Counted from the first letter of the stretch, positions 19,990-47,871 are shown. The stretch is 64,000 bases of DNA from Clostridiales bacterium (GCA_015055735.1 SVHP01000001.1:10506-74505); one strand, 5' to 3'. Notes: generated by a model from the letters alone, not told the origin. Numbers and translations: made by a program.

Positions 19990-21516
19990 TTAATTATTTT
20001 TTAATTTCATCATCTCGATTAACGCTTCAGCCGTTGCGTAAGCATCGGCTAGCGCACGGTGATGGTTAAATGTTATACCAAAATGGTCTGCAATAGTTTG
20101 TAAATCGTGTCGTCTTAAACTTGGCAAAACTTGTCTTGCAACTTCTACCGAGTCGATTACTTTATTCTTAACTTCAAACTCGCTCGCCCCAGCAAAGCGC
20201 TTGATAAATTTCATATCGAAATCGGCGTTATGCGCAACCAATATTGCGCCGTCTATAAACTTGATAAAGTCGGGAATAACAGCGCTAATTTTAGGCGAAT
20301 CTTTTACCATATCTTCAGTAATTCCCGTAATCTTTGCGTTTTCTTCGGTAATTTTATAGTCGGGCTTAACTAGCGTTGTAAAATGTTCGACTATCTTTCC
20401 CCCTACCATTTTTACTGCGCCTATTTCGGTTATGCCGTTATTCATAAAATCAAGCCCCGTAGTTTCCAAATCGAACACTACGTAAGTATTGTCGGTAAGT
20501 TCTGCTGGCAATATTTCTTCACTATCAAAAACGCTTTTAACCTTAATACTAACCTTAGCAGGCTCTGGAAATATCAATTTATATTCCCTTGGCGTTTTCT
20601 TTTTATACTTATCCTTTTTCACAAAGTCTTTTGGAAAAGTACAACGGTTTATCTTGTCAAAAGTAAAAGATCTTCTACCGTTATATTCGCCAATGCTACC
20701 CCTTGCTATTATACACTCGCCAACGACGATTTCTTTAATTTTATGATAAGTACTCTTTTTAGAAAAGTACACACCACTGGTCTTACCCGTAGTATCGTCC
20801 AAATGAATAATCAAGAACGGTTTACCGTTTTTAGTTTGACGCTCTTGAATATCGGTAACCGTACCACAAACTGTCACTTCGCCCTGATTAGCGTCTTCTA
20901 TGTAAAGGGCAAGATCCCCCATATTTTCATCGTCTATAACGACCACGTCTTGAACTTTAATAGTTCTATGCTCTATCTTTTGAAGTTGATCTTCATAAAC
21001 TTCTTCAGACAGTAAACTGAACGTTTCTTCAGCTTCTTTTATATCGGTACTTCCCACGAACTCCGAACAAAACAGTTTAGATAAGTGTGCGTTAAGTTTT
21101 TGCATAGCTCCGTTTTTAACTACGTATTCGGCCCCGTCCTTAGTAAGCCTTAACACGTATTTAACTAAATCGCCAACCACCGTAGAAATAATATCGGTAG
21201 GCTTTAGAAAGATCGAGATAGACGGATAGTTATCGCTTAAAAACTTAAAAATTTCGTTGTTAACGAGTTCGTCGTTACTTACGATCTTTTTAACGGTCAC
21301 TTGCACTTCGGTAAAAATAGGCGAAGTAATTTTTTCAGCGTGTTTTAGAATTTGCTGTTGCAAGTCGCTATCGATAGCCCTGTCGCATATAAAATTGTAT
21401 CTAATAGAATACTTTTTCTTATCGATCTCTATAGAACTAATCTTGACGTTTTTCAACCTTTCGTCAAGAAGTCTTATATCCGATAAAAACTCAGCATTAC
21501 TTTTTATCGTAAACAT
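19990..21516 (-). CDS. DnaQ-like 3'-5' exonuclease fused to an OB-fold and a PolC-type N-terminal region (no PHP or polymerase domains)
   Basis: C-terminal Exo I/II/III motifs: VVFDLETTGL, AHNADFDMKF, HRALADAYA. The central segment VTVCGTVTDIQERQTKNGKPFLIIHLDDTTG...ARGSIGEYNGR looks like the PolC OB domain. Confidence 0.7.
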   Translation of the reverse strand: MFTIKSNAEFLSDIRLLDERLKNVKISSIEIDKKKYSIRYNFICDRAIDSDLQQQILKHAEKITSPIFTEVQVTVKKIVSNDELVNNEIFKFLSDNYPSISIFLKPTDIISTVVGDLVKYVLRLTKDGAEYVVKNGAMQKLNAHLSKLFCSEFVGSTDIKEAEETFSLLSEEVYEDQLQKIEHRTIKVQDVVVIDDENMGDLALYIEDANQGEVTVCGTVTDIQERQTKNGKPFLIIHLDDTTGKTSGVYFSKKSTYHKIKEIVVGECIIARGSIGEYNGRRSFTFDKINRCTFPKDFVKKDKYKKKTPREYKLIFPEPAKVSIKVKSVFDSEEILPAELTDNTYVVFDLETTGLDFMNNGITEIGAVKMVGGKIVEHFTTLVKPDYKITEENAKITGITEDMVKDSPKISAVIPDFIKFIDGAILVAHNADFDMKFIKRFAGASEFEVKNKVIDSVEVARQVLPSLRRHDLQTIADHFGITFNHHRALADAYATAEALIEMMKLKNN

Positions 21517-22580: not shown

Positions 22581-22646
22581 GAAAATATATAAATTGTACA
22601 TCTTATCAAATTTATTAAAACGTAAACTTTTTGGCGCTAAAAACTA

Positions 22647-22664
22647 AAAGGGGTTATCCCCCTT
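22647..22664 (-). terminator. Intrinsic terminator closing the phage-derived operon
   Basis: Minus strand reads AAGGGGG-ATAA-CCCCTT followed by TTAGTTTTT. Confidence 0.6.
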
Positions 22665-22686
22665 CTAGCTTTTAAGTTTAAGATAG

Positions 22687-23583
22687 TTAAATACCAGCCC
22701 TTACTTTATAGGTATAGACGATTTCAGTATAATATTCGTCTAGATATATTGCTAGTTTTCGTTCTGAAGAAATATCGTAAAAGGCGTCGGTGGCGTTCAA
22801 GGTATCGTAATAACCGCAAACGCATCTAATAACGTCTTCGTAATATCCCATTTCAACTAACTGGTCGTGAGTAATTTCACCCGAAGTAATATCCAAAAAT
22901 CTCAACTCAAAACTTGCATTAATTTCTTTTAGACTATTGTCGTATCTTTGAATCTTTTCTTCAATGGCGTTATTGTACTTAAAAATTTCGTTGCTTAATT
23001 TTTTTCTATCTTCTTTAAGCTCCACTACTTTTGCTGTCTTTTCCTTACTGTGAATAGATGAAAAATAGGTTGAACTATCGTCAAGTTTTTTCTCAAGTGC
23101 AGTCTTTTTTGCAGTTAAACTTGCAACTTCGCTATCGCAACTAAGATTTATCTCGGTAATCTTTGCATTTTTCTCTTGTTCTAATTGGGCAGTCTTATCT
23201 ATGATAATAGACGAATTTATAAGCCCAGAACTTGCAATTTGACCTTGAATTTTTTTCAAACTTTGCTCGTAAAGTTGATTAACCTCATCAACTTGTTTAG
23301 CACTGTTTTGATTAACGAGATCAATTTTTGTTTGTATTTCAGTTATTTCTAAACTAATTTCTTGCTGATAATTTTTTATTTCTCGTTCGTGACTAGCAGA
23401 AAGCAAAGTATTTGCAGTAGTATTAAGTTCGGTATCGGTCGGTACTGCCGTACTCATTTTATCTAAATCCAACGGCAATAAGTTGATACCTTGAAAACCT
23501 TCTCGCCTAATCCTATAATAGTAAAACAAGTCGTTTAGCACAACGTACATTTGCGCCTTGGTCGTAGGTAAATTAAATTCCAT
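22687..23583 (-). CDS. Hypothetical protein, central coiled-coil (last gene of the phage-derived operon)
   Basis: 298-aa ORF with AGGAG RBS, 10 nt after the preceding stop. Long heptad-like E/K/Q/L-rich middle. I recognise no family. Confidence 0.6.
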   Translation of the reverse strand: MEFNLPTTKAQMYVVLNDLFYYYRIRREGFQGINLLPLDLDKMSTAVPTDTELNTTANTLLSASHEREIKNYQQEISLEITEIQTKIDLVNQNSAKQVDEVNQLYEQSLKKIQGQIASSGLINSSIIIDKTAQLEQEKNAKITEINLSCDSEVASLTAKKTALEKKLDDSSTYFSSIHSKEKTAKVVELKEDRKKLSNEIFKYNNAIEEKIQRYDNSLKEINASFELRFLDITSGEITHDQLVEMGYYEDVIRCVCGYYDTLNATDAFYDISSERKLAIYLDEYYTEIVYTYKVRAGI

Positions 23584-23593
23584 ATTTTTTCTC

Positions 23594-24829
23594 CTATAAA
23601 CTATATTCTAATTGTAAATTTTTAGCCTTCAAATCACCACTGTCAACGCTAATTTCAAAAGTAAAATCACAAGAATACAAATTCAAAATCTTTTTACAAT
23701 ACCCTTTCTTCAAACTATATTCTTTACTTCCAAAATCACCTTTGACTACAAGTAACGCGTCGCAATCTAGATGAATAGACAAAGATAATAACGATTTTTT
23801 AACGTTAGTGTTAAAATCAACCTTTTTACTTATCCATTTTCCACTCTGTCTAGTATCCTTTTCCAAAGTAAGCGTACAAATATACCCACTAGAATTATCG
23901 ACGTAAAACTCTCCTCCACACAAAGCGCAACTGCCCTTTTCGGTCAAGCACTGTTTGTTAGAAACCGTGTCGTATACGTAGATATAATTTTTATAATCGA
24001 CCATACTCGACATCGGCAAGTAATATTTTCCACCGCCCGAATAAGCCACGTCTTGCCTAACAAGTTGGTAGTCGCTTATAACCGAGTCAATTTCGCTTAC
24101 CCTATCCTTTTTGTAAGAACAAAGTTTATTAGCGTTCATAAATAGTATTGAGTCGCCTACTGCACAAACACTACCTTGTTCGATCTTCAAGCTATCGGCG
24201 TAAAGTTTATTTAACGCATAGTCATAATCACTTGAAATGGTTAATTTGTACATGGCTTTTTCACAAACTATCAAAAGCGCTTTGTCGTAATCAAATATTC
24301 TCATGATACGCTCGTCGTTTTCATCTAGATTTATAAAATTAAAATCACTCGCTTGAACGCTAAAGTCAACGAAGTCAAATTCTTTACTAAAATACAAAGT
24401 ATTACCATTTGCAACGAATATTCTTCCGTTATAAGTGCAAGCATCGGTGCCGTAAGGCACTGAAACGTTGGTATTAGTTTCCCCCAAAACAACGGCCTCA
24501 GAATTACTTAAAACCAACACGGTATCCTGCCCCTTAAACTTAACTTTAGACAGGGTTGGCGTTTTGTTTATACCTTCTAGCCTTTTAACAAAAGAAATGC
24601 CTTGAAATTCGTAAAGGCTTTTGTCGGAGCATAAAACGAATACCCTGTTTGCTACAAAATATCCTTTTACGACTTTAGCAGGCGCTTGACAAAACATGCT
24701 TTGTTTTTTAACGTTTAACTCTAATTCTTTTCCAACGTCAAGATTAACGGCGAGATTAGTAAGGTTAGAAAAATCTTCAACTATTAAAGTTTTTTTGTTC
24801 ATTTTACCCTGCGTCAAATACTCTTTCAT
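23594..24829 (-). CDS. Hypothetical protein, beta-rich repeats (phage-derived operon)
   Basis: Start moved to the ATG at 24829 (MKEYLTQGK), which overlaps the upstream stop as TAATG and has AAAGGAG upstream. Recurrent short hydrophobic beta-strand-like segments. No recognised family. Confidence 0.6.
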   Translation of the reverse strand: MKEYLTQGKMNKKTLIVEDFSNLTNLAVNLDVGKELELNVKKQSMFCQAPAKVVKGYFVANRVFVLCSDKSLYEFQGISFVKRLEGINKTPTLSKVKFKGQDTVLVLSNSEAVVLGETNTNVSVPYGTDACTYNGRIFVANGNTLYFSKEFDFVDFSVQASDFNFINLDENDERIMRIFDYDKALLIVCEKAMYKLTISSDYDYALNKLYADSLKIEQGSVCAVGDSILFMNANKLCSYKKDRVSEIDSVISDYQLVRQDVAYSGGGKYYLPMSSMVDYKNYIYVYDTVSNKQCLTEKGSCALCGGEFYVDNSSGYICTLTLEKDTRQSGKWISKKVDFNTNVKKSLLSLSIHLDCDALLVVKGDFGSKEYSLKKGYCKKILNLYSCDFTFEISVDSGDLKAKNLQLEYSL

Positions 24830-25389
24830 TAAACCCAACTCCTTTGTTTTATCTTGGAATTTTTTGGCAAACACAAAAGTTCAACGCTCGCAGCGTATCG
24901 CTTATGAAAAGCAACTGCGTCATCTAAACGCCCTTCGCTAATAGCAAGTTCAGCCAAGAGTCCGTAAGCAATAACTCGTGCAGGGACGTCCTTTTCCATA
25001 TACCCTATTTCTTGGTCTATTGAATAAGTAGGTGGAGAATATTCGTACTCAACGTCGACCGTCACGTGATTAAGAAGGATATATTCGGGCATTTGAGTAA
25101 AATTTACACTCGTTCCATCTTTTAGGTAAACCGAACGAATTTTCAATATTTTATCTTCTAATCTAGAATAATAAATTTTCCCACCGACACTACTGATCGA
25201 TTTAGTTTTAATCATAGGAATATAAGTGGTTGCTAATTCGTTTATAACCAAGTTAGCAAGTCCAACCATGCTATCTACTTGAGTGGAGGTTTCCACCCCT
25301 ACGTTTTGCACGTTGCCGTCCAAATAATCTATTATTTCCTTTCTATTTATCATCAACGCTGCCATTTTTATTATATCTTTAATTTGCAT
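24829..25389 (-). CDS. Hypothetical protein (position consistent with a head completion/adaptor protein)
   Basis: 186-aa ORF directly after the capsid gene and hairpin, with AGGAG RBS. The function is suggested by position only. Confidence 0.55.
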   Translation of the reverse strand: MQIKDIIKMAALMINRKEIIDYLDGNVQNVGVETSTQVDSMVGLANLVINELATTYIPMIKTKSISSVGGKIYYSRLEDKILKIRSVYLKDGTSVNFTQMPEYILLNHVTVDVEYEYSPPTYSIDQEIGYMEKDVPARVIAYGLLAELAISEGRLDDAVAFHKRYAASVELLCLPKNSKIKQRSWV

Positions 25390-25409
25390 AATTTCTCCTT
25401 TTTATACAA

Positions 25410-25436
25410 ATTGCCGAGCCTATAAGACTCGGCAAT
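25410..25436 (-). terminator. Hairpin after the capsid gene (partial terminator or mRNA stabiliser)
   Basis: ATTGCCGAG (25410-25418) pairs with CTCGGCAAT (25428-25436). On the minus strand it is followed by TTGTATAAAAAGGAG, which leads into the next ORF. Confidence 0.5.
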
Positions 25437-25462
25437 TTAGTTTGTAAATTTTTTAGATGATA

Positions 25463-26638
25463 TTATTCTGTAATACTAGCAATCATACCTTGACCTGCTG
25501 GACAAGAACAAATAAGATCTGCGTATTTTACGAGAGTAGCAGTATAAACTGGTTTTCCAGGCACTTGACGAAGAACCTTTCCGTCGTCGCCTGAAAGCCA
25601 TTGCCAATCGCAAAGTTGATGTAATGCAAAATCGTTAGTATTAAGCAAATACATAGTACCTTTTGGACAAAATCTATCGGCAACGATAGGAATACCGTTA
25701 AACGACATAGCCTTAAAACCACCAGCCAACTCCATAGTGTCTACCACACGTTTATTTTGAGAGAACAATTTTTGAAGCGCTCTTCTAACACCTAACGAAC
25801 AAACGATGAAGTTTACCTTATTACCACTCTTAAGTTCAATTTCGTCAAGTGCGATTTGAATAGCTTCTTCACTAATTTCGCCACTCAAGTGTTTGATGTA
25901 CGGATTAAGAATAGGAGTTTGAGCCTTATTAGCGCCGTAAATATTAGTAATTTTATTATCGAATATTGCGCCAAGCCCCGTGATTTCGTTATTATACGAA
26001 CCTTGAAGCATTAAGTAAGCGTATGAAGGAAGATTATCTTCTATAACTTCCTCACCCGAAATAGTTACCATGCTCATATCTCTATCGATATTAATAATTT
26101 TTCTTCCCGTAGCGCCAGCAACAGGTACGCCTTGTCCGTCTACGATGTCAACTATCATACCTTCAGAAAGGTTGTTCAAGTTGTCAACGTCTAGCATGCC
26201 GTCGGCAATACTTCTAATGCTTGCTAGAAAGCCCGTACCGTTACCGTAAAGCATTCTTCCAAAGTTAAACGAACTTGCTTTAATAAGGCTTTCCATTTCA
26301 GAATTTAATAAACTTACGAACGAACCAGCGTTATTTTCAGAGGCTCTAATCGCCTTATCAGAAATTTCGATTACGCCGTACAAGTTCTTTAAGGTCGATA
26401 CTAGTTGAACGTAGTTATTTCCAGAAGCTGCTGGGAGACCACCGTCTTCAGTACCCGCACCGATACCACCGTTAAGACCTGAAACTGCTAATTTTCTAAC
26501 TTCTTTACCCCAAACGTCGTTGGTAGTTTTCTTAATTGCCGCAAAGAAAGGGTTAACGTATCCGTCAAGTTGTGAACTCACTGCATCTAAGTAATATGTT
26601 TTTAACGCATTATCAGCGTTTTGTAAAGTAATAGCCAT
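25463..26638 (-). CDS. Phage major capsid protein (likely HK97-fold)
   Basis: 391 aa, located directly after a scaffold-like gene and downstream of portal and TerL. Strong AGGAG RBS and its own downstream hairpin. The call rests on context and general resemblance, not a named motif. Confidence 0.65.
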   Translation of the reverse strand: MAITLQNADNALKTYYLDAVSSQLDGYVNPFFAAIKKTTNDVWGKEVRKLAVSGLNGGIGAGTEDGGLPAASGNNYVQLVSTLKNLYGVIEISDKAIRASENNAGSFVSLLNSEMESLIKASSFNFGRMLYGNGTGFLASIRSIADGMLDVDNLNNLSEGMIVDIVDGQGVPVAGATGRKIINIDRDMSMVTISGEEVIEDNLPSYAYLMLQGSYNNEITGLGAIFDNKITNIYGANKAQTPILNPYIKHLSGEISEEAIQIALDEIELKSGNKVNFIVCSLGVRRALQKLFSQNKRVVDTMELAGGFKAMSFNGIPIVADRFCPKGTMYLLNTNDFALHQLCDWQWLSGDDGKVLRQVPGKPVYTATLVKYADLICSCPAGQGMIASITE

Positions 26639-26708
26639 AATTTCTCCTTTTTAATAAAAATAATATAATGTTTGTAAAATTTTAATTTTTTGGTTGTAGT
26701 TTTACCTA

Positions 26709-27161
26709 TTAGTTATTCACCAATAGTTTTTTAGCGAGATTCCCCGCTTCTTCAATGGTTTTTGGTCTAGAAACGGGAGTCTTCACGCCTGCTCCTGCCC
26801 CATCCATAACGATGGCTTGTGGCTTTTTATTAAGCACGTCAAGTAGGTATTCTTTTAACACGTCTTCTTTATCAACCGAATTTTCACCTATATTTGACGG
26901 CTCGTTTTTATCCGTTTGTATTTTTTCATCAACTTGATGATCAGCCGTTTTTTGTTGACCCTCAGCAATTTTGCTTTCCAATTCTTTTATTTTCTGACAG
27001 CGTTTGGTAAATTCAGACTGTAAAGAATTGTAAGCGTTGACAAGCGAGTCTACGTCCTTAAACTTTCCAAATGAGACTTCACTTTTTTTATCGCCTAAAT
27101 CTTTTTCCGTCTCCACGGTGTGCGTTTTAAGTTCTGTTTGTTCATTAATTATTTGTTCCAT
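26709..27161 (-). CDS. Phage capsid scaffolding protein
   Basis: 150 aa, acidic and helical. The segment FGKFKDVDSLVNAYNSLQSEFTKR resembles scaffold proteins. Lies between portal and capsid. Confidence 0.6.
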   Translation of the reverse strand: MEQIINEQTELKTHTVETEKDLGDKKSEVSFGKFKDVDSLVNAYNSLQSEFTKRCQKIKELESKIAEGQQKTADHQVDEKIQTDKNEPSNIGENSVDKEDVLKEYLLDVLNKKPQAIVMDGAGAGVKTPVSRPKTIEEAGNLAKKLLVNN

Positions 27162-29037
27162 CGTTTATTTCTCCATTTTTTACCATTAATTTTTGTTTAT
27201 GCTCTAAGATGTGAGCATAAAAATTTTGTTTTTGCTTATCCGAAAGAGATTGATATTCACTTAAGACGTATCTAGTATGTTCTTCTTCGTGTACCGAATG
27301 TTCGTCAATATCGTCTACGCATACAAATTTCTTTTTAAGTAAATCGTTTTCTCGTTGCGCCTTTTCTTCGTGAAGTCTTGCAAGTCCCTTTTGATAATCA
27401 AGTTCCTTATATCCTAATAAAGACAACACTTTTTCCTTAATACTCGGTCTAAATTTACCTGCATCGTCGGTTAGTAAGCCACTTTCGTAAAGTTTAAATA
27501 TCATTTCCTTCTTTTGTCTATTGGTGTACAAAAGTTCGTTTTCGTTTTCCAAATAAACGTCGTCAGAGCCTATCGCCCTTTTGTCTAGATAGAGAATGTG
27601 CGTTTTCTTAAACTCGTCTTGAACTTTAATAACCCTAACGTCAGCCGAAAACTGCGAATACAATCTTATCATTTGTTTAGAAATTTGCACGTAGCAGTTT
27701 CTAATTTCTTCGGCACTTTTTAGAAGTCTAGAGTTATCTTGTTCAACCAATATTTCAAGCGAAGTACCACTAGATAGCGTTGCGTTAGAGGCGCTAGAAG
27801 TAACGTTACTAACACCACTGACTACAACGAATTCATTTAGCAACCTTTCTTCTTCCTCGTTAAAGTCGGACGGCATACTCATTCCCGACATCATCTCAGG
27901 CGCTTTAGAGCCTTGTCTATAAACTAGCACTTTTCCAGGACTTAATCCTTCTTCTGCTAAATCGTCAACGTCGGTAGAACCGTCTTCAACCGTCAACACG
28001 CCCATAGAAAGTCTATTCAAAAATTCGTGCTTACGATTTTTAACTGCATTGTACGCCCTTTGAATAGGTATCAATCTTTCGATAATGCTCTTTCCGAAAA
28101 AGCAACCTGCCTGTTCGTACGAGCATTGTTTAACGAAAGGATAACTTCTTCCACCGTTCTCGGCATTTTGATAAGGCAACTCACCTAAATACAATAATTT
28201 GCCGTTAGCAACGGTAATAAGTCTACCGTTTGGAAACTCAGCGTTAGGTTTTTCATATCTTTCGATAACTATAACTGCGTTATCCATAGTATTTTGGTCT
28301 TGCGAATTAAAAGCCGACTCGTTTTGCAAACTTTGAACGTAGATAGTTTTACCTATAACGCCCACTCCGTAAATTCGTTTAACGTCGTCCACACTCATAG
28401 CCCTAGCGTGTATGATGCTTGCGCAATCTTCTATATCTTCGCTAGTTAAGTTGTCTGGGAAAATTTCAAAGGGCGAAACGGGTATAACCTTAACTTCCCC
28501 TTCAAAAACGTCCTTTCCATGATGTTCTCCGATTTTATTTCCACCAAAACTATCCCATAAAATTTTATAAAAACTCGTACCACACGTTTCGCTCCATACG
28601 GTCGCCTTTTTAACTACTTTATCAAGCGCAATTTTTTTAGAAACGTTTTCTAAAAGCTTTTCGGCTAAAGACGCGGCAGTTACGTCCGCATCGTCGTCGG
28701 TCTTTGGTCTTACGGAAACGTTGGGGGTTATAGAAGAGAATTTAGATAACCTTGTGTCAATTATAGGTGCAATGTGATTAAAAACACCCTGTCCTTGCCA
28801 GTAATACGTTTTATTTTGTTCAAGCAATTCACCTTGAGAATTCAAGTCGCAATACTGATTGCCGTTAAGGAAATTCATATTAAGTTCCCACTGTCTTTCG
28901 TAACCGACTCTTTTTTCTCGTCTTTTCTTAAAATCCATTTCAACGTCGGCAATTAAGTCTTCGATATATCTATCGCTTTGCCTTTTTGAATTGAATTTTC
29001 CTTTGGTTGTATTCAAATTTTTTTCTCCTTTAATCAT
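27145..29037 (-). CDS. Phage portal protein
   Basis: 630 aa, just downstream of TerL. N-terminal W.LN.NF..GNQY portal-like motif. Confidence 0.75.
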   Translation of the reverse strand: MIKGEKNLNTTKGKFNSKRQSDRYIEDLIADVEMDFKKRREKRVGYERQWELNMNFLNGNQYCDLNSQGELLEQNKTYYWQGQGVFNHIAPIIDTRLSKFSSITPNVSVRPKTDDDADVTAASLAEKLLENVSKKIALDKVVKKATVWSETCGTSFYKILWDSFGGNKIGEHHGKDVFEGEVKVIPVSPFEIFPDNLTSEDIEDCASIIHARAMSVDDVKRIYGVGVIGKTIYVQSLQNESAFNSQDQNTMDNAVIVIERYEKPNAEFPNGRLITVANGKLLYLGELPYQNAENGGRSYPFVKQCSYEQAGCFFGKSIIERLIPIQRAYNAVKNRKHEFLNRLSMGVLTVEDGSTDVDDLAEEGLSPGKVLVYRQGSKAPEMMSGMSMPSDFNEEEERLLNEFVVVSGVSNVTSSASNATLSSGTSLEILVEQDNSRLLKSAEEIRNCYVQISKQMIRLYSQFSADVRVIKVQDEFKKTHILYLDKRAIGSDDVYLENENELLYTNRQKKEMIFKLYESGLLTDDAGKFRPSIKEKVLSLLGYKELDYQKGLARLHEEKAQRENDLLKKKFVCVDDIDEHSVHEEEHTRYVLSEYQSLSDKQKQNFYAHILEHKQKLMVKNGEINDGTNN

Positions 29038-29329
29038 TTTGAATTTGTTTAAGCAGTTTCAAAAGTCTAATCTTTTCGCTCTCTAGCTCCTCGTCAGACA
29101 TTTGACTTACCTGTTGTTCGTTTTCATCTAACAAAAGTTTAAGGGCGGTAATATCCGGTGGAACGTTTTTTATCGTGACTTTTTTCTTGGTCAATTTAAC
29201 GTCACCTTCTTCATTACCTACGTATTCTTCAACCACTTCGGTCGCATCGTATCCCAACGCTTTCTTTATTAGAACTTGCCTTAAATCTTGCTCGGTGATA
29301 ACCTTTTGTTTTTTACTTTTTCCTTTCAT
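29030..29329 (-). CDS. Small phage protein, possibly terminase small-subunit-like
   Basis: 99 aa, overlapping TerL by 17 nt and portal by 8 nt. Basic N-terminus, and KKVTIKNVPPDITALKLLL resembles the C-terminal part of some small terminases. Confidence 0.45.
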   Translation of the reverse strand: MKGKSKKQKVITEQDLRQVLIKKALGYDATEVVEEYVGNEEGDVKLTKKKVTIKNVPPDITALKLLLDENEQQVSQMSDEELESEKIRLLKLLKQIQND

Positions 29330-30746
29330 TCATAATTTTTCTGATTAACCTTTCCTTATCCTTTTGAATTTCCGTCTTTGGCTTTTTAGGCTGGGCATTA
29401 TCAGGTTTTGTCATTATGTAATAGCGCAATTCGTCTAGCGCATGGTCGTCTACTTTTCTTGGGTTTTCGCCAGCGCCCCAACGGTAGGTTTTTAGTTCTC
29501 TAATAAGGTTTACGCACGATGGAAATATATAGAGTTTAGGTTTATTATCGTTAACTTTCAAATACTGTTTAACCCTTTGAATTCCACTAAACATATCCTT
29601 ATTGACGTTTGGGTTAACGATTATTCCCGAGTCGTAGAACAATTCGGTCACACTCTTTGAAGATGCCAAAGTCCTTTGATTAGCAGCGGAGTCGATGATA
29701 GCGTGGTACCTTCCGAAAGCATCTGACTTCCAATTAAGCGACTTACTTATTTTCTTTATCATATCCGAATGATAACAAACGTCCCTTCCCGCCTCAAAAT
29801 GTTCGGCTACGACGTAGATATTTCCATCGTAATCAACTGCATACCAATGCGCCGAAAGTGGATTGTTAAGACCTGGGTCGATAGAAATAGTATCCTGCCA
29901 TTCTAGCGGGATATTAAAAGGCTGTTTTAGGACGTGAATTTGTTCGTCAAACTCTGGATATACAAGTCCTGAACTAGCCTTAAATCGACCGTAGCGCCTA
30001 CTTTCAAGTTGATCGCTAGATAAAGTTTTAGTAAGCAACGCTACTTGCGCACTATCTAAATACGGATTATCGCCCCACTCCATAAACTCGTACCATATCT
30101 CGGGATCGTTTTCTTGATTAAGATAGATCTTGTCGTGAATAAAGGTCAAGCCTTTAAGTGGAGTCATCGTTCCGAATATATCCCCACACTTATCTAGAAC
30201 TCTCATTCTACACTCATCGTAAATATCTTCGGGTGGTTCTTCGTCAAACCAAACGAAATCCAACGAACTGCCTTGAAATTTTTCTCTACCTTGGTCACAA
30301 GATTTAAAACCTATAACAGAAATACCACCAAAAACGTTTCGCATTCGGATTTGGTCTATTACGCCGTATTTTAGGCTGTCTTTCTTTCCCGAAAGCATAC
30401 TCACGTCCACAATCCAAGACGGGTTGATGTAAGATAAGACCTTGTTTTGCGCAACGTCCCTTTGAACTTGTTGTGAAAGTGAAACAACCCAGCCAAAGAC
30501 GTTATCTTTATTTTGCCTATAAGGGTGTATACCCCTCGCCAAATAAACACTTTCTACTGCACCACATTCAGTCTTACCACTTCTGTTTCCACCAAAAACC
30601 CATCTATTCTTTTTTTGGCACTTGTGAAAGGCAAGTTGTTTTAAATGCACCTTTTCACCGGTGTTATATTTAGCTAACCTGTCTTCACCTTTTCTTAATT
30701 TTTGTTCTTGTTCGATTAAGTTGATTCTCGATATTATCTGTTGCAT
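29313..30746 (-). CDS. Phage terminase large subunit
   Basis: Walker A FGGNRSGKTE, Walker B LDFVWFDEE, and a C-terminal nuclease-like region (IDSAA, DDHALDELRY). The start is taken at MQQIISR (ATG 30746), 4 nt after AGGAGG. Confidence 0.85.
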   Translation of the reverse strand: MQQIISRINLIEQEQKLRKGEDRLAKYNTGEKVHLKQLAFHKCQKKNRWVFGGNRSGKTECGAVESVYLARGIHPYRQNKDNVFGWVVSLSQQVQRDVAQNKVLSYINPSWIVDVSMLSGKKDSLKYGVIDQIRMRNVFGGISVIGFKSCDQGREKFQGSSLDFVWFDEEPPEDIYDECRMRVLDKCGDIFGTMTPLKGLTFIHDKIYLNQENDPEIWYEFMEWGDNPYLDSAQVALLTKTLSSDQLESRRYGRFKASSGLVYPEFDEQIHVLKQPFNIPLEWQDTISIDPGLNNPLSAHWYAVDYDGNIYVVAEHFEAGRDVCYHSDMIKKISKSLNWKSDAFGRYHAIIDSAANQRTLASSKSVTELFYDSGIIVNPNVNKDMFSGIQRVKQYLKVNDNKPKLYIFPSCVNLIRELKTYRWGAGENPRKVDDHALDELRYYIMTKPDNAQPKKPKTEIQKDKERLIRKIMNERKK

Positions 30747-30771
30747 AATGCCTCCTAACCAAAGCAACCGC

Positions 30772-30800
30772 ATTATATATCTCTTTTTTTACGATTGCAA
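30772..30800 (-). promoter_or_regulatory. Consensus sigma-A type promoter, TTGCAA-17-TATAAT, driving the phage-derived operon
   Basis: On the minus strand, TTGCAA (30795-30800), a 17-nt spacer, TATAAT (30772-30777), about 25 nt upstream of the TerL ATG. Confidence 0.5.
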
Positions 30801-31035
30801 TACTTCATGACACCAAAATTCAAAATTTTTTAAAAAAATAAATCCACAATTTCAAAAATCGTGAATTTTAATATAATATATTAACTATTTAAATTTTCTC
30901 AAAAAAATTTGCAAAAAAATATTTTTAAATTTTAACAATTACTATAAAAAAAGTTGAATACTCCATAAAGTTTTAACATTTAAATTGAGCATCTCATAAA
31001 TTGATAAAAGAACTAAACAATCAAAAGGAGTAAAA

Positions 31036-32310
31036 ATGAATCCATTTAATGAAAGCCCTAGACCGATAGATAAAACGCTTCAAAATTGGCAACAGTTATA
31101 CCCAAAGCCTTATAACAAGCGAGAAGTAGATCCTTACACAAAGTGTAGAATAATACTTATGAACGGCACGGAATTTGAAGCAAACTGGTTTTCTCATCAA
31201 CTTGCTAGGCACACTTGCAACAACGAACTTCGCAGGGATATCGCCTTAACTAGAGAAATAGAAAAACAGCAACAGCTTAAAATTTCATTATTAAAACCAA
31301 AGGACGAGAGCATATTAGAACACACTATCGGGTACGAACAACTTGCCGTCGATTTAACGGCAGAACTTGCTAAACGTGAGATAGACTGTTCGGTAAAAAC
31401 AGCCTTAGACTTTGCATTACTTGAAGACTTCGACCATTTATATAGGTACGCTAACCTACTTGAAATGGAACAAGGCGTTTACGCCGAGTGGCTAGTTGGA
31501 AGATACACCGAAATAATGCCAGGACGCCCTACTATTTCACACCATCGCTATCCTAAAGACAACGTTAGAAGTTGTATAAACGCCAAGACTTCGGACGTTC
31601 AAACGGTGCTTAACACTATGATAATCACGGGCGCCGAACAACAAACCATGAATTATTATATGAACGTCACAAACTTTGCAAAAAGTGATTTAGGACGAAG
31701 ACTATATCAAGAAATTGCCCTAGTCGAAGAAGAACACGTAACCCATTACGAATCGCTTATGGACGGAAATGCAACTTGGCTCGAAATGCTTTTATGGCAC
31801 GAATATTGCGAGTGCTATTTATACTGGTCTTGCTACGTTACCGAAACGGACGGGTACATTAAAAACCTTTGGGAAGAAAATCTATCGTTTGAAATTAGTC
31901 ATTTACATCGTGCTGTTGACTTACTCAAAAAATACGAAAACAAAGATTGGCAAGAAGTCATACCTTGTGGAGACTTCCCTGCACCTATTTCATTACACGA
32001 AAATATCGATTATGTGCGCAAGATTTTAGACGATACCGTGCAGTTTACAACCGACCGTGATAACTACGTTAAAATCAAAGATTTGCCAAGTGACGCAGAC
32101 TTTTTCAAGTTCCAAAACATTACCAATCCTAACGTAGATATAGTTCCGTCACACAACGTAATTCAAACGGAAATCGCACGGCGTGGAATGGATTATCGCT
32201 ATCAAACAGCCCCAAACCCTATCGAACAACTACGTGATAGACGTGTTGACAACACTAGCGTTGGTAGAAAACCAAACGCCACTTCATCATCAAGTTTTTA
32301 TTGCAACTAA
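31036..32310 (+). CDS. Ferritin-like (di-iron carboxylate type) superfamily protein, function unknown
   Basis: 424 aa with AAAGGAG RBS. Helical segments carry E/ExxH-type ligand patterns: GTEFEANWFSH, LEDFDHLY, GAEQQTMNYY, VEEEHVTHYE. Confidence 0.45.
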   Translation: MNPFNESPRPIDKTLQNWQQLYPKPYNKREVDPYTKCRIILMNGTEFEANWFSHQLARHTCNNELRRDIALTREIEKQQQLKISLLKPKDESILEHTIGYEQLAVDLTAELAKREIDCSVKTALDFALLEDFDHLYRYANLLEMEQGVYAEWLVGRYTEIMPGRPTISHHRYPKDNVRSCINAKTSDVQTVLNTMIITGAEQQTMNYYMNVTNFAKSDLGRRLYQEIALVEEEHVTHYESLMDGNATWLEMLLWHEYCECYLYWSCYVTETDGYIKNLWEENLSFEISHLHRAVDLLKKYENKDWQEVIPCGDFPAPISLHENIDYVRKILDDTVQFTTDRDNYVKIKDLPSDADFFKFQNITNPNVDIVPSHNVIQTEIARRGMDYRYQTAPNPIEQLRDRRVDNTSVGRKPNATSSSSFYCN

Positions 32311-32325
32311 TAAATTTTCTTGTAG

Positions 32326-32366
32326 TAAAAAACACACTGTTTTATAAAAGCAGTGTGTTTTTTGTT
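32326..32366. terminator. Bidirectional intrinsic terminator between convergent genes
   Basis: AACACACTG (32331-32339) pairs with CAGTGTGTT (32351-32359). Flanked by A and T runs. Confidence 0.65.
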
Positions 32367-32378
32367 TATATTTATTTT

Positions 32379-34766
32379 TTAGACTATTAGTTTATCGTGA
32401 AGAACAGTAAACTTCTTATCTAAATATTGTACGCTAATTACTTCCATTTTTGACATAGTAATTTGTTGGCTATTTCCTTCTATGGTAAGAGTAAAAGTCT
32501 TGTCTTTAAGTTCAGGGTTAAAAAATCTCAAAACGTAACCGCCGTCCTCGCCTATTTTCATAGTAGGCATTACCACAGGTTTATCGGTATAAATTTGAGT
32601 TTTGCGTTCTCCAACACCTATCGGGAACACGTTGATGGCGTAAGGTTTTTGGTTAAAGAGTTCGCTCATAGTAGTCACTTCTTCAACCGTACCCGTCATA
32701 ATTCTAAGTCTATAAGTATATCTGCCGTTATCAATTCTTGGCAAGTATCTATCGGTAGGGTAAAGTTTTCTTCGACCAGGAATCAAGCCGTATTCATCAA
32801 TAGGTAGTGGATGCATACAATATCCAGCGCCACGAAGTAAGGTTAAATAAATATATCCGTCCTTTATAATACCAGAATACACACCGTCGTTTATAACTGC
32901 GAATACTTGTCCGTCTTCTTTTCTTACACCTAGCCATTTTTGGAAAGACAATTCGCTATCCAATGGCTTTTCTTCAACGACGAACGGACCGTCGCCTATC
33001 ATAACGCCTTTTGGCGCAGGAATTTTAAGTTTTACAAGTTTATTCTTTTCGGAAAACTCTACCGTTACTTTTAAGTCAACGTACGACTTATCTTTATAAC
33101 GGCGATATTCTATTACTGCATCAGTCTTGTTCTTAGTATAAAAACCTTCAACCGAAGTTAAAATCTCCCCGTCTTCAATAACGTGTTCAGGGTAAATATC
33201 TTCGTTTGAAACGATAAAATCCTTACATTCTTGCTCTGTCATAAGCCTAAATTCTACTGGATTTTTACCCATACATCTTTGCTCGTCTTCGCTCATACCC
33301 CAAGGGTCGGCAGTATCGTCGTACATTTCTAAAGCAACGGGACTATCTAAAAGAGAGCCTTTAATAAATTCTTTAATATCCCCCTTAACTGCAGGTACAG
33401 AATATCTATCGTATCCCTTCTCTTCTTTTACAAATACCGAAAATCTAGTCACGCCAAGTGGTTTTAGCGTTCCGTTAAATACGATTCTTTTTCGCCAATC
33501 AAGGTTCATATTTGAATCTTCTTTAATTTCTTGACAAGGAATTTCTTTGCCGTTATAGTACACTACCGGCGCATATCTAAGGTCATATCGCCAGTTTTGG
33601 TCAGGCAATATAAATTCAGCTTCGATAGGCTCGGTAATTTCGTATGGCATAGGGTTAAATACGTAGATAGGGAATTCGCCTTCTTGAGCCACAGGCTCGC
33701 CTGCCGTAAGGTACATAAATGCGTTAGTTCTATAATCTCTACATATTTTCTTACAGTAGTTTAATAGTTCTAAAGCGTTCGCTTCGCCGTCCTCAATACA
33801 ACTTCCAGGAAGCGTATCGTGGAACTCCGAAAGTAGCAACGCCTTTTGCGCTTCGTACAAATCTTTTAAGTCGGGATTGTAGCCAGAAAGAGAGGCAACC
33901 GACAACATTTTTTCGGTAGTATAAAGTACGTTTTCGGCTTGTCTATGCGCTTGTTTAACCCTTGCCATAGACGAATAACAACCAGCCATACAAGTAACTA
34001 ACGAATAGTCTATATCGTTGCTAATCTTAATATCGTCGTTAAACAAGTCTTCAAGCGTACTATGGAAAATATTAAAGCCGTCTATCTTTAAATTTTCAAT
34101 ATCTTTTAAATCCTTTCTAGACGGACCGCCACCGTGGTTGCCTACACCCCAAAGCACGAAGTCAACGTCTTCAGCTTCCTTCGCCCTATCTGTAATCAAT
34201 TCAGCAGCCTTACCTAGCACTGAACCATAGTTTTTAGAGTTTGAAAACAATATACTATCACCACTTGGGCTTACCCAATTATAAAATTTTCCTTCAGGGT
34301 AATGTGCATTTTTGCTCCATTTTAAAGGTCTAAAAGCAACGTAGCCTTTATATCCCGTCTTTTTAAGAATTTGAACTAAACCTATACTGTGTCCAAAAGA
34401 ATCGTAATTTACTGCAATTTCGGGAATAACACCGAATTTTTCTTCAAAGTATTTATGTCCTACTTTGGTTTGACGCACGAAACTTTCGCCACTAGGCATT
34501 AAGCAGTCCGGCTGTAAATACCAACCGCCTGTAATCTTCCATTTACCTTTCTTTACGAGCGATTTGATACGTTCAAAAAGTTCAGGACAATTTTTTTCAA
34601 CTGCTTCGTAAAGCAAAGATTCGTTATGACAAAATACATAATCAAACTGATCGGCAAGATCGCAAGCGCTCTTAAAAGTCGCAATAGCCGCCGATATTCC
34701 TTCGTCCCAAGTCCACTGCCATACTGGGTCTATGTGTGCGTTGCAAATCAAATGTAATTTTTTCAT
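32379..34766 (-). CDS. Glycoside hydrolase family 38 alpha-mannosidase
   Basis: N-terminal CNAHIDPVWQWTWDEG, the GH38 signature. 795 aa. Confidence 0.85.
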   Translation of the reverse strand: MKKLHLICNAHIDPVWQWTWDEGISAAIATFKSACDLADQFDYVFCHNESLLYEAVEKNCPELFERIKSLVKKGKWKITGGWYLQPDCLMPSGESFVRQTKVGHKYFEEKFGVIPEIAVNYDSFGHSIGLVQILKKTGYKGYVAFRPLKWSKNAHYPEGKFYNWVSPSGDSILFSNSKNYGSVLGKAAELITDRAKEAEDVDFVLWGVGNHGGGPSRKDLKDIENLKIDGFNIFHSTLEDLFNDDIKISNDIDYSLVTCMAGCYSSMARVKQAHRQAENVLYTTEKMLSVASLSGYNPDLKDLYEAQKALLLSEFHDTLPGSCIEDGEANALELLNYCKKICRDYRTNAFMYLTAGEPVAQEGEFPIYVFNPMPYEITEPIEAEFILPDQNWRYDLRYAPVVYYNGKEIPCQEIKEDSNMNLDWRKRIVFNGTLKPLGVTRFSVFVKEEKGYDRYSVPAVKGDIKEFIKGSLLDSPVALEMYDDTADPWGMSEDEQRCMGKNPVEFRLMTEQECKDFIVSNEDIYPEHVIEDGEILTSVEGFYTKNKTDAVIEYRRYKDKSYVDLKVTVEFSEKNKLVKLKIPAPKGVMIGDGPFVVEEKPLDSELSFQKWLGVRKEDGQVFAVINDGVYSGIIKDGYIYLTLLRGAGYCMHPLPIDEYGLIPGRRKLYPTDRYLPRIDNGRYTYRLRIMTGTVEEVTTMSELFNQKPYAINVFPIGVGERKTQIYTDKPVVMPTMKIGEDGGYVLRFFNPELKDKTFTLTIEGNSQQITMSKMEVISVQYLDKKFTVLHDKLIV

Positions 34767-39570: not shown

Positions 39571-40488
39571 TTAGTTTTTATTAGGGTTGCTGTTTCGTTC
39601 CCAAAACACGCCGTCCGAATAGCCTTGTATAGATTTATCACTCTCGGCGTCTTTAAGGCGTTTTTCGCCCCAAGCGCAATAGAGTGGATTTTGTTCTATA
39701 TTGATATAGTTTCTAGATAGTTTTTTAGCAACCACGCCCGTAGTACCACTGCCTGCAAAGGGGTCTAGCACTAAATCGCCTTGATTAGAACTTGCAAGGA
39801 TAAGTTTTGCAATAAGTTTTTCGGGTTTTTGGGTTGGGTGCGCAGTATTTTCTGCCATTGACCAATAAGGAATAGCAATATCGTCCCAAAAGTTAGACGG
39901 GCAAGTTAGCCTAAACTTTCCGTCCTTAGTTTCTTGCCAATCTTTAGGCTCTCCGTCCTTTTTATAAGGTGCTAAAACCTTTCTTTTTTGCTTAACTGCG
40001 TCCAAATTAAAGGTATAATCATCGCTAACGGTAGCAAAGAAAATATCTTCCATACAGTTTTTCCAATTAGCCTTTGCGCCACGCCCTTTTTCTCTTTGCC
40101 AAGTGATTCTGTTTCTTAAAACAAAGTGTTTATCGATAATCTCGCCTATAACTAGCGCGCTTTTCCAATCGCAACAAACGTAAAGGCTTGCAGTATCTTT
40201 TAATTTGTCTTTAATTGCAGTTATCCACTTTTCGGTATAATCGGCGTACTCTTTAAGCCCAAGTTTTTTAAAGTTTGAGCCGTGAAAGTTTTTATCCAAG
40301 TTATAAGGTGGGTCAACCACGAGTAAGTCTATCGACTTATCCTTAATTTTTTTCAAGACGCTAAAACTATCGCCAAGCACGGTACAGTTTATGTGCTCGC
40401 AATAATCTTGTTCTTTTATGCAGTTATCTAAATAAACTTTACCTTCATTTAGGTCAAAGTCTATGGTTTTATTTCTAGTTGATTTCAT
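39571..40488 (-). CDS. Site-specific DNA methyltransferase, beta class (N6-adenine or N4-cytosine); no restriction partner seen
   Basis: Motif IV VVDPPYN comes before motif I DPFAGSGTTGVVA, which is the beta-class order. Also HPTQKPEKL. Confidence 0.85.
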   Translation of the reverse strand: MKSTRNKTIDFDLNEGKVYLDNCIKEQDYCEHINCTVLGDSFSVLKKIKDKSIDLLVVDPPYNLDKNFHGSNFKKLGLKEYADYTEKWITAIKDKLKDTASLYVCCDWKSALVIGEIIDKHFVLRNRITWQREKGRGAKANWKNCMEDIFFATVSDDYTFNLDAVKQKRKVLAPYKKDGEPKDWQETKDGKFRLTCPSNFWDDIAIPYWSMAENTAHPTQKPEKLIAKLILASSNQGDLVLDPFAGSGTTGVVAKKLSRNYINIEQNPLYCAWGEKRLKDAESDKSIQGYSDGVFWERNSNPNKN

Positions 40489-47130: not shown

Positions 47131-47871
47131 TTATAAATCTTTATCGTTTATATCTATAATTATTCCTTGCGTTTTCTTATAACTAACTAATGCTTGTTTA
47201 TAATTATCTTTTTGCTCTATTCTTTCAAAATTACCTTTCAATAAAAAATCAGTTAGTTCCCTATTCGTGTTTATTTCTTCAGGTATATAAATACCCGCAG
47301 TTATAGGTTGGTCAGCATGATGAAAGTCCGTACCCGACATCTTAATCAAATTATGTCTATCGCAAAATTCGTTTGCCAAAGCATTTTTATTTCTATGATG
47401 ATAATGTCCGTTAAAACTTTCAGCGCCGTGTAAATACTGTGGATTACCTGCAGTTACCCCATCTCTAAACGGATGAGTTTGATACATAAAAAGATTATAT
47501 TCTTGGCTTAAATCAAACAATTCCTTTTGCGTTAAATCATATAGTTTTGGATAACGGTACAAAAACTCTTTATCAAAACCGTACAACATAAACTCGGTGT
47601 TAATGCAAAGCAATCTAGTTTCAAGTCCGTAAAAAATTTTCAAGCCGTGTTTTTGCCCTAAATCTTGCGCTTGGTTGATTAAATCAAAATAATATTCGAC
47701 ATAGCCCTTATCTGTTTTATCGCTAAACGCATCAAAACTATTTTTACAATAGTGATTAGTAACAACTATTGCACCATAGCCTGCCTTTTTATACTCTAAA
47801 ATAATATTTTCGGTAGTCCAATCAGCACAATAACTGCCCCCTGTATGAGCGTGAGTTTCAAGTTTAATCAT
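47131..47871 (-). CDS. PHP (polymerase/histidinol phosphatase) domain protein
   Basis: N-terminal ETHAHTGGS, VVTNH, and later H-rich motifs (THPFRD, NGHYHH, GTDFHH). Confidence 0.75.
   Translation of the reverse strand: MIKLETHAHTGGSYCADWTTENIILEYKKAGYGAIVVTNHYCKNSFDAFSDKTDKGYVEYYFDLINQAQDLGQKHGLKIFYGLETRLLCINTEFMLYGFDKEFLYRYPKLYDLTQKELFDLSQEYNLFMYQTHPFRDGVTAGNPQYLHGAESFNGHYHHRNKNALANEFCDRHNLIKMSGTDFHHADQPITAGIYIPEEINTNRELTDFLLKGNFERIEQKDNYKQALVSYKKTQGIIIDINDKDL

Follow-up and report, generated by a model that had tools for sequence, protein, structure and literature searches.

The 64-kb stretch of DNA from a Clostridiales bacterium described here (GCA_015055735.1 SVHP01000001.1:10506-74505, hereafter the window, with flank extensions of ~10 kb on each side bringing ~84 kb into view) carries a block of eight phage-derived genes that is, with a probability of about 0.9, a domesticated and functional particle-forming packaging operon. 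That this operon acts as a gene transfer agent (GTA) in the strict sense has somewhat better than even chances. The block most likely descends from a P22/SU10-like short-tailed phage, having been domesticated, passed on vertically and reduced to the minimal set for sealed, DNA-filled capsids, and it appears to be an independent podovirus-derived GTA-like lineage, spread across an order of gut Clostridia. Because the block is kept intact next to ispG in dozens of Christensenellales species, it is read as encoding a host-owned GTA-like particle and not a prophage.

All eight open reading frames (ORFs) lie on the minus strand, spanning 22687-30746 (~8.1 kb), and they are tightly coupled, with successive overlaps of 17, 8 and 17 nt, gaps of 70 and 73 nt, an overlap of 1 nt and a gap of 10 nt, as calculated from the ORF coordinates. 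An earlier note on this stretch had described eight intact co-directional frames in these places and with this spacing, bounded by a promoter and an intrinsic terminator, and both the frames and the boundary sites were found where it had put them. In the order of transcription, the genes encode the large terminase TerL, a 99-aa TerS-like protein, the portal, a 150-aa acidic protein, the major capsid protein (MCP) and three proteins of 186, 411 and 298 aa. The GC content of the block and its GC content at third codon positions (GC3) equal those of the flanks, in agreement with what the note had judged by eye.

The block is widespread and is preserved as a unit. A relative of its MCP is present in 369 species-representative genomes, and the MCP homologs comprise more than 6000 clusters (64-70% identity), many on contigs of 100-300 kb labelled Clostridia or Christensenellaceae. 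In a sample of 80 loci (L001-L080), the eight genes return in unchanged order and with unchanged sizes (~477, 98, 620, 145, 391, 186, 411 and 298 aa), the architecture being intact in 47 of the 53 species-level loci with room for the whole block. The genes ispG-exo-rimP-nusA-infB follow directly downstream in 35 of 50 loci, and this fixed ispG-nusA-infB position extends to L077, whose NusA is only 71% identical to that of the window. The search for the block beside ispG in related genomes, which the note had proposed, consequently shows that it is not strain-specific.

The block has also diverged together with its neighbourhood. Identities among loci are 69-84% for TerL, 59-67% for MCP and 50-74% for the portal, against 69-87% for NusA and 44-77% for the neighbouring exonuclease, so that the core proteins of the block match their neighbours in conservation. 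Distances based on TerL, portal and MCP follow those based on the 508-aa exonuclease, nusA and rimP with a slope of 1.03 (Mantel r 0.75, with none of 2000 permutations as high), the identity matrices of block and flank genes give the same clade structure, and in close pairs block and flanks have equal dS. Regarding selection, dN/dS was calculated by NG86 in close pairs, leaving out some pairwise dN values above 2 for ispG and the 411-aa gene as artefacts of frame or of high-scoring segment pairs. It is 0.03-0.08 for TerL, portal and MCP (0.03-0.05 for TerL), 0.07-0.18 for the 298-aa gene and ~0.13-0.4 for the 150-, 186- and 411-aa genes (~0.2-0.4 for the first of these), compared with 0.01-0.10 for the housekeeping neighbours; the ratio of ~1.0 for the 186-aa gene in the closest pair, L005-L006, derives from very few substitutions. 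The relaxed selection that the note had named as a possible objection is thus not seen, dN/dS being far below 1. Taken together, these patterns indicate that the block has long been passed on vertically while selection maintained a functioning machine for DNA packaging.

The rate of change is not uniform along the operon, as the three genes behind the MCP gene are only 20-50% identical among loci, compared with 60-84% for the head genes. Between L001 and L002, these three genes (L001:7005-9697) show a dN of 0.11-0.18 and a dS of 0.9-1.4, where TerL and MCP show a dN of 0.01-0.03 and a dS of 0.35-0.40, suggesting recombinational replacement or accelerated evolution of the segment. The MCP of the window shows an identity of 65-67% whether it is compared with its closest relatives (TerL 83-84%) or with more remote loci (TerL 70-78%), and MCP identity levels off at ~60-70% at all but the shortest distances; the capsid protein thus appears, from these comparisons, to change fast initially and then to saturate. 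More divergent clades (L069:13312-15507; L053, L054; L056, L060, L061, L063, L064, L068, L070, L071, L073 and L079) vary the 3' end of the module and do not adjoin ispG. In one of them, a further gene of ~290 aa separates the hub gene from DUF7934 (the L069 DUF7934 match being 3.9e-35), and in another the last gene encodes ~160-185 aa and has no Pfam match.

From their family matches, TerL, portal and MCP are firmly identified, as the note had proposed for the terminase, the portal and a capsid-like protein. The motifs that the note had read, GNRSGKT (Walker A) and LDFVWFDEE (Walker B), are both present in the translation of TerL, and the protein matches Terminase_6N (E 5.5e-10), phrog_2 (1.5e-25) and C-terminal TerL phrogs. 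Walker A, Walker B and the three nuclease Asp motifs are kept in 61-64 of 64 orthologs, and the large terminase of the operon is catalytically intact by these motifs. The ORF as listed covers 29313-30773; translation most likely begins at the ATG at 30746, which a GGAGG ribosome-binding site precedes, and the ATG at 30773 overlaps the -10 box. As for the MCP, it matches NF033394 with 252 bits (cutoff 80), which is its sole NCBIfam match at E<=0.01, phrog_14242 with an E-value of 3.3e-59 and SU10_MCP weakly.

The 99-aa protein, whose gene follows TerL, is probably a TerS without its N-terminal part, acting as a DNA-recognition-deficient TerS or as a packaging accessory. Its orthologs match phrog_309 (TerS) in 27 of 28 cases, with a best E-value of 3.6e-8, and phrog_23444 in 13 of 28; the match to phrog_309 covers only profile positions ~188-243 of 319, which is the C-terminal part, and the orthologs share 20 invariant columns. 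No significant profile match was obtained in the PDB, Pfam returned only noise on the orthologs, and hhalign was negative against all structural proteins of Microbacterium phage Shocker, P22 and T7. Between portal and MCP, the 150-aa protein occupies the position of P22 gp8 and T7 gp9 and is a candidate scaffolding protein; it has orthologs in 70 other loci and family matches below threshold only.

From its Foldseek matches, the 411-aa protein is a tail hub of the class of P22 gp10 ('DNA-stabilisation') and T7 gp12. The longest ORF, of 426 aa, opens with a GTG; the length of 411 aa applies to the ATG start, which is preceded by an AAGGAG site. The AlphaFold2 model is all-beta, with a pLDDT of 59 from a shallow alignment (the profile query gave 6 proteins), and its 17 best Foldseek matches in the PDB are, without exception, chains of podophage tail complexes, including Pa223 (8.6e-13), Pan3, GP4, VP1, SU10 (7z47_G), P22 (9jg6_a, 4.8e-9, with 470 residues and thus of gp10 size) and T7, generic beta-propellers appearing only from ~1e-6 on. 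In BFVD, the named top matches are 'Bacteriophage P22, Gp10, DNA-stabilising'. By profile comparison with hhalign, the protein is related to gp33 of phage Shocker (Prob 92.5, E 5e-7), which adjoins a 'tail tube protein' gene, and to a 477-aa protein of Maliibacterium (Prob 97.8). P22 gp10 and T7 gp12 align at the same propeller region with E-values of only 0.08 and 0.017, respectively, and no significant match was found among PDB sequences with the profile.

On either side of the hub gene, the evidence is mainly one of position. The 186-aa protein is a candidate head-tail adaptor; it has no match to a Pfam or PHROG family and no significant PDB profile match, its single-sequence AlphaFold2 model is unusable (pLDDT 34), and hhalign was negative against all structural proteins of Shocker, P22 (gp4 included) and T7 (gp11 included). 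Homologs directly precede the tail-hub gene in Maliibacterium (189 aa, hhalign Prob 91.9, E 7e-7) and in L097 (194 aa, tblastn 4e-9). The 298-aa protein has conserved N- and C-terminal domains with a coiled coil between them, its PDB profile matches being coiled coils only and none significant; its DUF7934 family has no match among 50,697 phage genomes, hhalign against all structural proteins of Shocker, P22 (gp26 included) and T7 was negative, and a homolog was recovered in the Maliibacterium module (Prob 96.2). Its place in the operon suggests a needle or plug like gp26. The earlier note had called the operon head-only and had left these three proteins unassigned. The first description is too strong, as a hub of the gp10/gp12 type is present and the three proteins occupy the slots of gp4, gp10 and gp26, so that the operon comprises head, motor and portal-sealing/tail-hub proteins; the second no longer applies to the 411-aa protein, placed by Foldseek, and still describes the 186- and 298-aa proteins, which are placed by position.

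All three tail proteins have homologs in larger podovirus-type tail modules, found in Maliibacterium massiliense (L101, LR026983.1 2215459-2236634) and in L097 (IMGVR_UViG_3300029705_006596). In these modules, a sigma-like regulator lies upstream, TerL is preceded by a full TerS of 150 aa, and extra proteins of 136, 172 and 254 aa are encoded; their 3' part runs from MCP through the homologs of the 186- and 411-aa genes to an 805-807-aa tail protein, DUF7934 and a 680-704-aa protein. Compared with them, the window is 58% identical in TerL, 38% in the portal and 39% in MCP. Since the extra genes have no homolog in the window, the eight-gene block is regarded as a reduced derivative of this podoviral lineage. 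The gene in the scaffold position encodes ~150 aa in the block compared with 227-405 aa in the fuller modules, and one may speculate that the short scaffold hints at a smaller capsid. The larger modules themselves could be true prophages or larger GTA-like elements. Maliibacterium massiliense is cultured, being a possible entry point for experiments.

Closer relatives among phages are not apparent. Among 50,697 deposited phage genomes, the best matches of MCP and portal are actinobacterial podophages with 25-29% identity, and the closest homologs of the block are not found in complete phage genomes; their presence there, which the note had named as counting against its reading, is thus not seen. 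The IMG/VR contigs that carry this capsid gene (L084-L098) are fragments of the block of 4.5-17 kb, some with host genes attached, L088 for instance also carrying host rho and the methyltransferase; another contig, L099, consists of host or defence genes. These 'viral' contigs are pieces of bacterial chromosome, and the element is being catalogued as a virus in public virome resources.

Regarding expression, TTGCAA-17-TATAAT is located at 30800-30772, with the GGAGG site ~20 nt further downstream. The consensus scan alone is weak, having found 37 promoter-like sites where 24 are expected; the position of this promoter is, in addition, conserved among species. The conserved element is a composite of a GTCATAA-like box, N3-8, a -35 element (TTGACW/TTTACA), N15-19 (~17) and a -10 element TAYAAT, present in 20 of 51 orthologous upstream regions compared with a mean of 0.07 in shuffled ones. 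This strict pattern did not score the window's own GTCATGA copy, and a relaxed pattern found in the window only the promoter at 30811-30772 and one intragenic chance match. The box is probably an activator site and would speak against the constitutive-looking promoter that the note had seen; together with the conserved sigma-A-type promoter, it suggests a host regulator. A sporulation-sigma reading of the GTCATA box was considered and rejected, there being no fitting -10 element at the required spacing.

The following mode of action can be proposed for the operon. The sigma-A-type promoter with its GTCATAA box would drive expression under host control, the portal, the short scaffold and the MCP would build a procapsid, and TerL would fill it by headful packaging. 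As the 99-aa protein lacks the N-terminal TerS region, usually the DNA-binding domain, packaging would be of low sequence specificity and chromosomal DNA would be taken in. The portal would then be closed by the adaptor (186 aa), the hub (411 aa) and the coiled-coil protein of the DUF7934 family, in the manner of P22 gp4, gp10 and gp26. The apparatus for release and adsorption might be supplied by unlinked loci, as in RcGTA and FpGTA, or, alternatively, the C-terminal domain of DUF7934 might itself contact the recipient. The net effect would be a GTA-like particle carrying fragments of host DNA.

Several points weigh against this reading. The operon is known from its genes alone, and its link to published packaging in Christensenellaceae is circumstantial. 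Genes for lysis, receptor binding and ejection are lacking in the ~84 kb, so that a complete GTA would need partner loci elsewhere. The assignments of the 150-aa protein as scaffold, of the 186-aa protein as adaptor and of the 298-aa protein as needle or plug have position as their sole basis, and that of the 99-aa protein as TerS comes from modest PHROG scores. The hub model is of low confidence (pLDDT 59, with TM-scores of 0.28-0.46), and in a few loci (L029, L045) the hub ORF is split, which may be due to assembly errors or decay.

The lack of receptor-binding, ejection and lysis genes in ~84 kb is also what lends weight to the main, though unlikely, alternative, in which the operon makes sealed, DNA-filled heads without fibres and is not an autonomous GTA; such heads would take tails or tailspikes from co-resident or infecting phages, a kind of piracy like that of satellites but with an immobile locus, or serve some other host function, such as DNA export for extracellular DNA, decoys or interference with infecting podophages. 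The genes kept after the MCP gene are exactly the 'head completion / DNA stabilisation' set of P22, which in that phage gives stable filled heads that become infectious only once tailspikes are added, and the 680-807-aa tail proteins of the fuller relatives have been lost from the block. However, RcGTA and FpGTA likewise hold their lysis and fibre genes at distant loci, which makes their absence from the window uninformative; the tail-distal 186-, 411- and 298-aa genes evolve fastest, as expected of parts that contact the recipient, and no sign of an alternative function was seen in this analysis. A broader form, to be regarded as rather doubtful, takes the operon for an order-wide, anciently domesticated 'sealed-head' machine, as opposed to a classical GTA, in which the genes for procapsid, motor and portal plug are all that is left and all receptor-binding and ejection functions are lost. 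Its purpose for the host could then be to export chromosomal DNA in a programmed way or to protect it, or else to provide ready-made, DNA-filled heads for which infecting podophages supply the tailspikes; in the latter case, it would correspond to a capsid-forming satellite that is fixed in the chromosome and does not move.

Further readings have also to be weighed. A split or rearranged viral prophage with its replication, lysis and integration modules elsewhere in the genome is improbable: the view is limited to 84 kb of one genome and the larger Maliibacterium and L097 modules could be true prophages, but the position beside ispG-nusA-infB is fixed in at least 35 species-level genomes, the block occurs in IMG/VR as short fragments only, in part with host genes attached, and divergence is equal in block and flanks, where a self-propagating phage would not have kept 1:1 pace with a single locus for so long. 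Most phage functions are missing and the hub ORF is occasionally split (L029, L045), as would fit a cryptic remnant that has no present-day function and persists by chance or through polar effects on ispG; this is very improbable, because 47 of 53 loci have the full set of eight intact ORFs, five genes show a dN/dS of 0.03-0.2 and the catalytic residues of TerL are invariant, and because the operon has its own conserved promoter and terminator and is therefore not needed for the expression of ispG. The compact, capsid-centred gene set without tail fibres recalls a mobile capsid-forming satellite, like a capsid-forming phage-inducible chromosomal island (cf-PICI), or an encapsulin-like nanocompartment, options that the note had kept beside its GTA-like reading and that are now scarcely credible. 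Against the satellite, no integrase, alpA, replication gene, att repeats or tRNA target was found at the locus, which is fixed, vertically inherited and co-diverging with its host; against the nanocompartment, portal, tail hub and an intact TerL motor and nuclease are all present, the TerL motifs being kept in 61-64 of 64 orthologs. Both were accordingly rejected. An intact, co-diverging and selected block thus excludes decaying remnant, mobile satellite and nanocompartment alike. The note's preference for a domesticated GTA-like packaging particle over an inducible prophage or random decay is, in the light of synteny, co-divergence, dN/dS, intactness and TerL motifs, borne out as the best reading of a selected, host-resident operon.

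Features of the packaging operon and its boundaries in the window (all evidence from sequence or predicted structure).
Feature	Position	Strand	Basis
Promoter: GTCATGA box, -35 TTGCAA, 17-nt spacer, -10 TATAAT	30772..30811	-	Consensus scan and direct reading
TerL (g1), ATPase and nuclease packaging motor, 477 aa	29313..30746	-	Terminase_6N/6C, phrog_2, Walker motifs
99-aa TerS-like protein (g2)	29030..29329	-	phrog_309 match; overlaps TerL and portal ORFs
Portal, 630 aa	27145..29037	-	P22_portal 1.8e-17; SU10_portal 3.3e-9; phrog_156 4.8e-35
150-aa acidic protein (g4), candidate scaffolding protein	26709..27161	-	Position only, portal-MCP interval
MCP, 391 aa, HK97-fold podovirus type	25463..26638	-	NF033394 capsid_maj_Podo, phrog_14242
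186-aa protein (g6), candidate head-tail adaptor	24829..25389	-	Position of P22 gp4 / T7 gp11
411-aa beta-propeller protein (g7), podovirus tail hub/nozzle	23594..24829	-	Foldseek, BFVD, hhalign
298-aa DUF7934 protein (g8)	22687..23583	-	Pfam DUF7934 9.5e-14; position of P22 gp26 needle/plug
Intrinsic terminator	22646..22665	-	8-pair hairpin GAAGGGGGATAACCCCTTTT, then T-rich tail; closes operon

The surroundings of the block are those of a bacterial chromosome. A family scan of the window ORFs gives ispG, a 508-aa exonuclease, rimP, nusA, ylxR, ylxQ, infB, rbfA and truB downstream, and a GH38 mannosidase, topoisomerase subunits, a DNA methyltransferase, rho and argS upstream; ispG, beyond the terminator, has its own promoter-like site at 22580-22552. 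Outside the block, only housekeeping genes were found in the window and ~10 kb on each side. The placing beside ispG given in the earlier note therefore stands. Its list of missing phage functions also holds, as families of integrase, repressor, replication, protease, tape-measure, holin and endolysin proteins were found in no ORF of the window nor in the ~10 kb further on each side. In the window, neither direct repeats bracketing the block, nor an adjacent tRNA, nor an Rfam element was found, and receptor-binding and ejection proteins are not recognisable in the block or the ~84 kb around it.

Some neighbouring genes deserve mention in their own right. In the nearest relatives, the upstream neighbours of the block are methyltransferase-topoB-topoA and TerL comes directly after topoA, while in the window (31036-34766) a GH38 alpha-mannosidase and a divergent 424-aa gene separate the two. 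Pfam, PHROG, NCBIfam and PDB gave no match for the 424-aa protein; in L029 and L051, homologs of it occur in another arrangement, at a distance of 5-9 kb downstream of the block. The 508-aa gene at 19990-21516 (minus strand) combines an OB-fold with a DnaQ/RNase_T-type 3'-5' exonuclease, without a polymerase domain; its overlap with ispG is 13 nt, and all relatives have kept the gene (44-77% identity), which occupies what we take to be the slot of polC in the Bacillus-type order ispG ... polC-rimP-nusA-infB. A lone N6/N4 DNA methyltransferase at 39571-40488 (minus strand), between rho and topoB, has no visible restriction partner and holds the same position in related genomes with 74-77% identity. 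Between tRNA-Gln and mfd, two ORFs of 246 and 612 aa (47131-47871 and 48527-50365, minus strand) belong to no Pfam family, and the 612-aa protein has no match in the phage collection.

The element is of interest because GTAs are known from very few lineages, FpGTA, reported in 2026, being the first podovirus-like and the first human-gut GTA. The operon is conserved in hundreds of Christensenellales species from human and ruminant guts, no prior description of it was found in the literature searched, and it is a concrete candidate for the genes behind the packaging seen in Christensenellaceae. If its particles are transducing, a heritable, health-associated order of gut bacteria would have capsid-mediated gene flow built in, and part of the 'bacterial contamination' of gut viromes would be explained. 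In addition, the eight-gene set would define the minimal needs of a DNA-filled podoviral head.

Among known phages, the block is most similar to the late operon of P22, whose genes 2-1-8-5-4-10-26 stand in the same order as TerL, portal, scaffold, MCP and the 186-, 411- and 298-aa genes. The Pfam matches P22_portal, SU10_portal and SU10_MCP, and the predicted hub fold shared with P22 gp10, the SU10 nozzle and T7 gp12, point in the same direction. The block thus combines a Terminase_6-type TerL, a P22/SU10-type portal, an HK97-fold MCP, a gp10/nozzle-type hub and a scaffold in place of a protease, as in modules of the P22/SU10 kind. It differs from P22 in lacking the tailspike, the ejection proteins gp7, gp20 and gp16, and a full-length TerS that could recognise pac through its own domain, and sequence identity is undetectable beyond matches of hidden Markov models at the family level. 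It is not the gene set of a complete virion either, as the operon terminates right after the DUF7934 gene and the tail proteins of the fuller relatives are not in the window. Moreover, integrase, att sites, immunity and replication modules, by which a prophage is recognised, were not found, and the block is not strain-variable. What is present are caudovirus-derived structural and packaging genes in a chromosome, without replication or integration functions, inherited vertically at a conserved locus and under purifying selection, as is the case for GTAs in the sense of Lang/Kogay et al.

With the RcGTA-type agents of Alphaproteobacteria, the block shares a host-resident head and packaging cluster, vertical inheritance, purifying selection, a truncated, presumably non-specific TerS, accessory genes that would lie elsewhere and a capsid too small for its own cluster, the last being shown for RcGTA and presumed for the Christensenellales block. 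In contrast, RcGTA is siphovirus-like, with ~17 genes that include a protease, a tape measure and a tail tube and with CtrA/GafA regulation, whereas the Christensenellales element is podovirus-like and has 8 genes and no protease.

The closest counterpart is FpGTA, the podovirus-like GTA of Faecalibacterium prausnitzii, a 10-ORF operon that gives capsids of ~40 nm with ~8.5 kb of DNA, with a second operon (fibre, receptor-binding protein, holin, endolysin) 125 kb away, as shown experimentally (PMC12946183, Nat Commun 2026). In the same study, GTA-like packaging of random fragments in virus-like particles from human stool included Christensenellaceae in 3 of 25 events (genera HGM11616 and QANA01), with read-length peaks at ~4.1 and ~6.3 kb (PMC12946183 Supplementary Data 1); GTA genes were searched only in metagenome-assembled genomes of Onthomonas, Gemmiger and Faecalibacterium, and no cluster was assigned for Christensenellaceae (PMC12946183). 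An 8.1-kb operon would not fit into heads of 4.1 or 6.3 kb, and its connection with these events is circumstantial.

Both elements are chromosomal operons of ~8-10 kb in gut Clostridia, near-ubiquitous in their host clades, encoding TerL, portal, scaffold, MCP and podovirus-type hypothetical proteins, with a TerS without an obvious DNA-binding domain, a coiled-coil protein in the last position and no lysis or fibre genes in the main operon. However, their hosts belong to Oscillospirales and Christensenellales, respectively, and the particles and DNA of FpGTA have been seen experimentally, where the other operon is represented by genes. By annotation, the FpGTA capsid protein (RCH50849.1) belongs to the N4-gp56 family and that of Christensenellales matches only NF033394, and none of 20 sampled MCP homolog clusters (50% representatives) came from Faecalibacterium. 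In FpGTA, TerS is upstream of TerL and a Prp-like protein (RCH50850.1) lies between portal and MCP, whereas in the Christensenellales block the TerS-like gene follows TerL, nothing coding precedes TerL and no Prp match occurs between portal and MCP. The two are the same kind of element from different lineages, set apart by annotation and gene order, and the difference in their capsid families suggests that they were domesticated independently.

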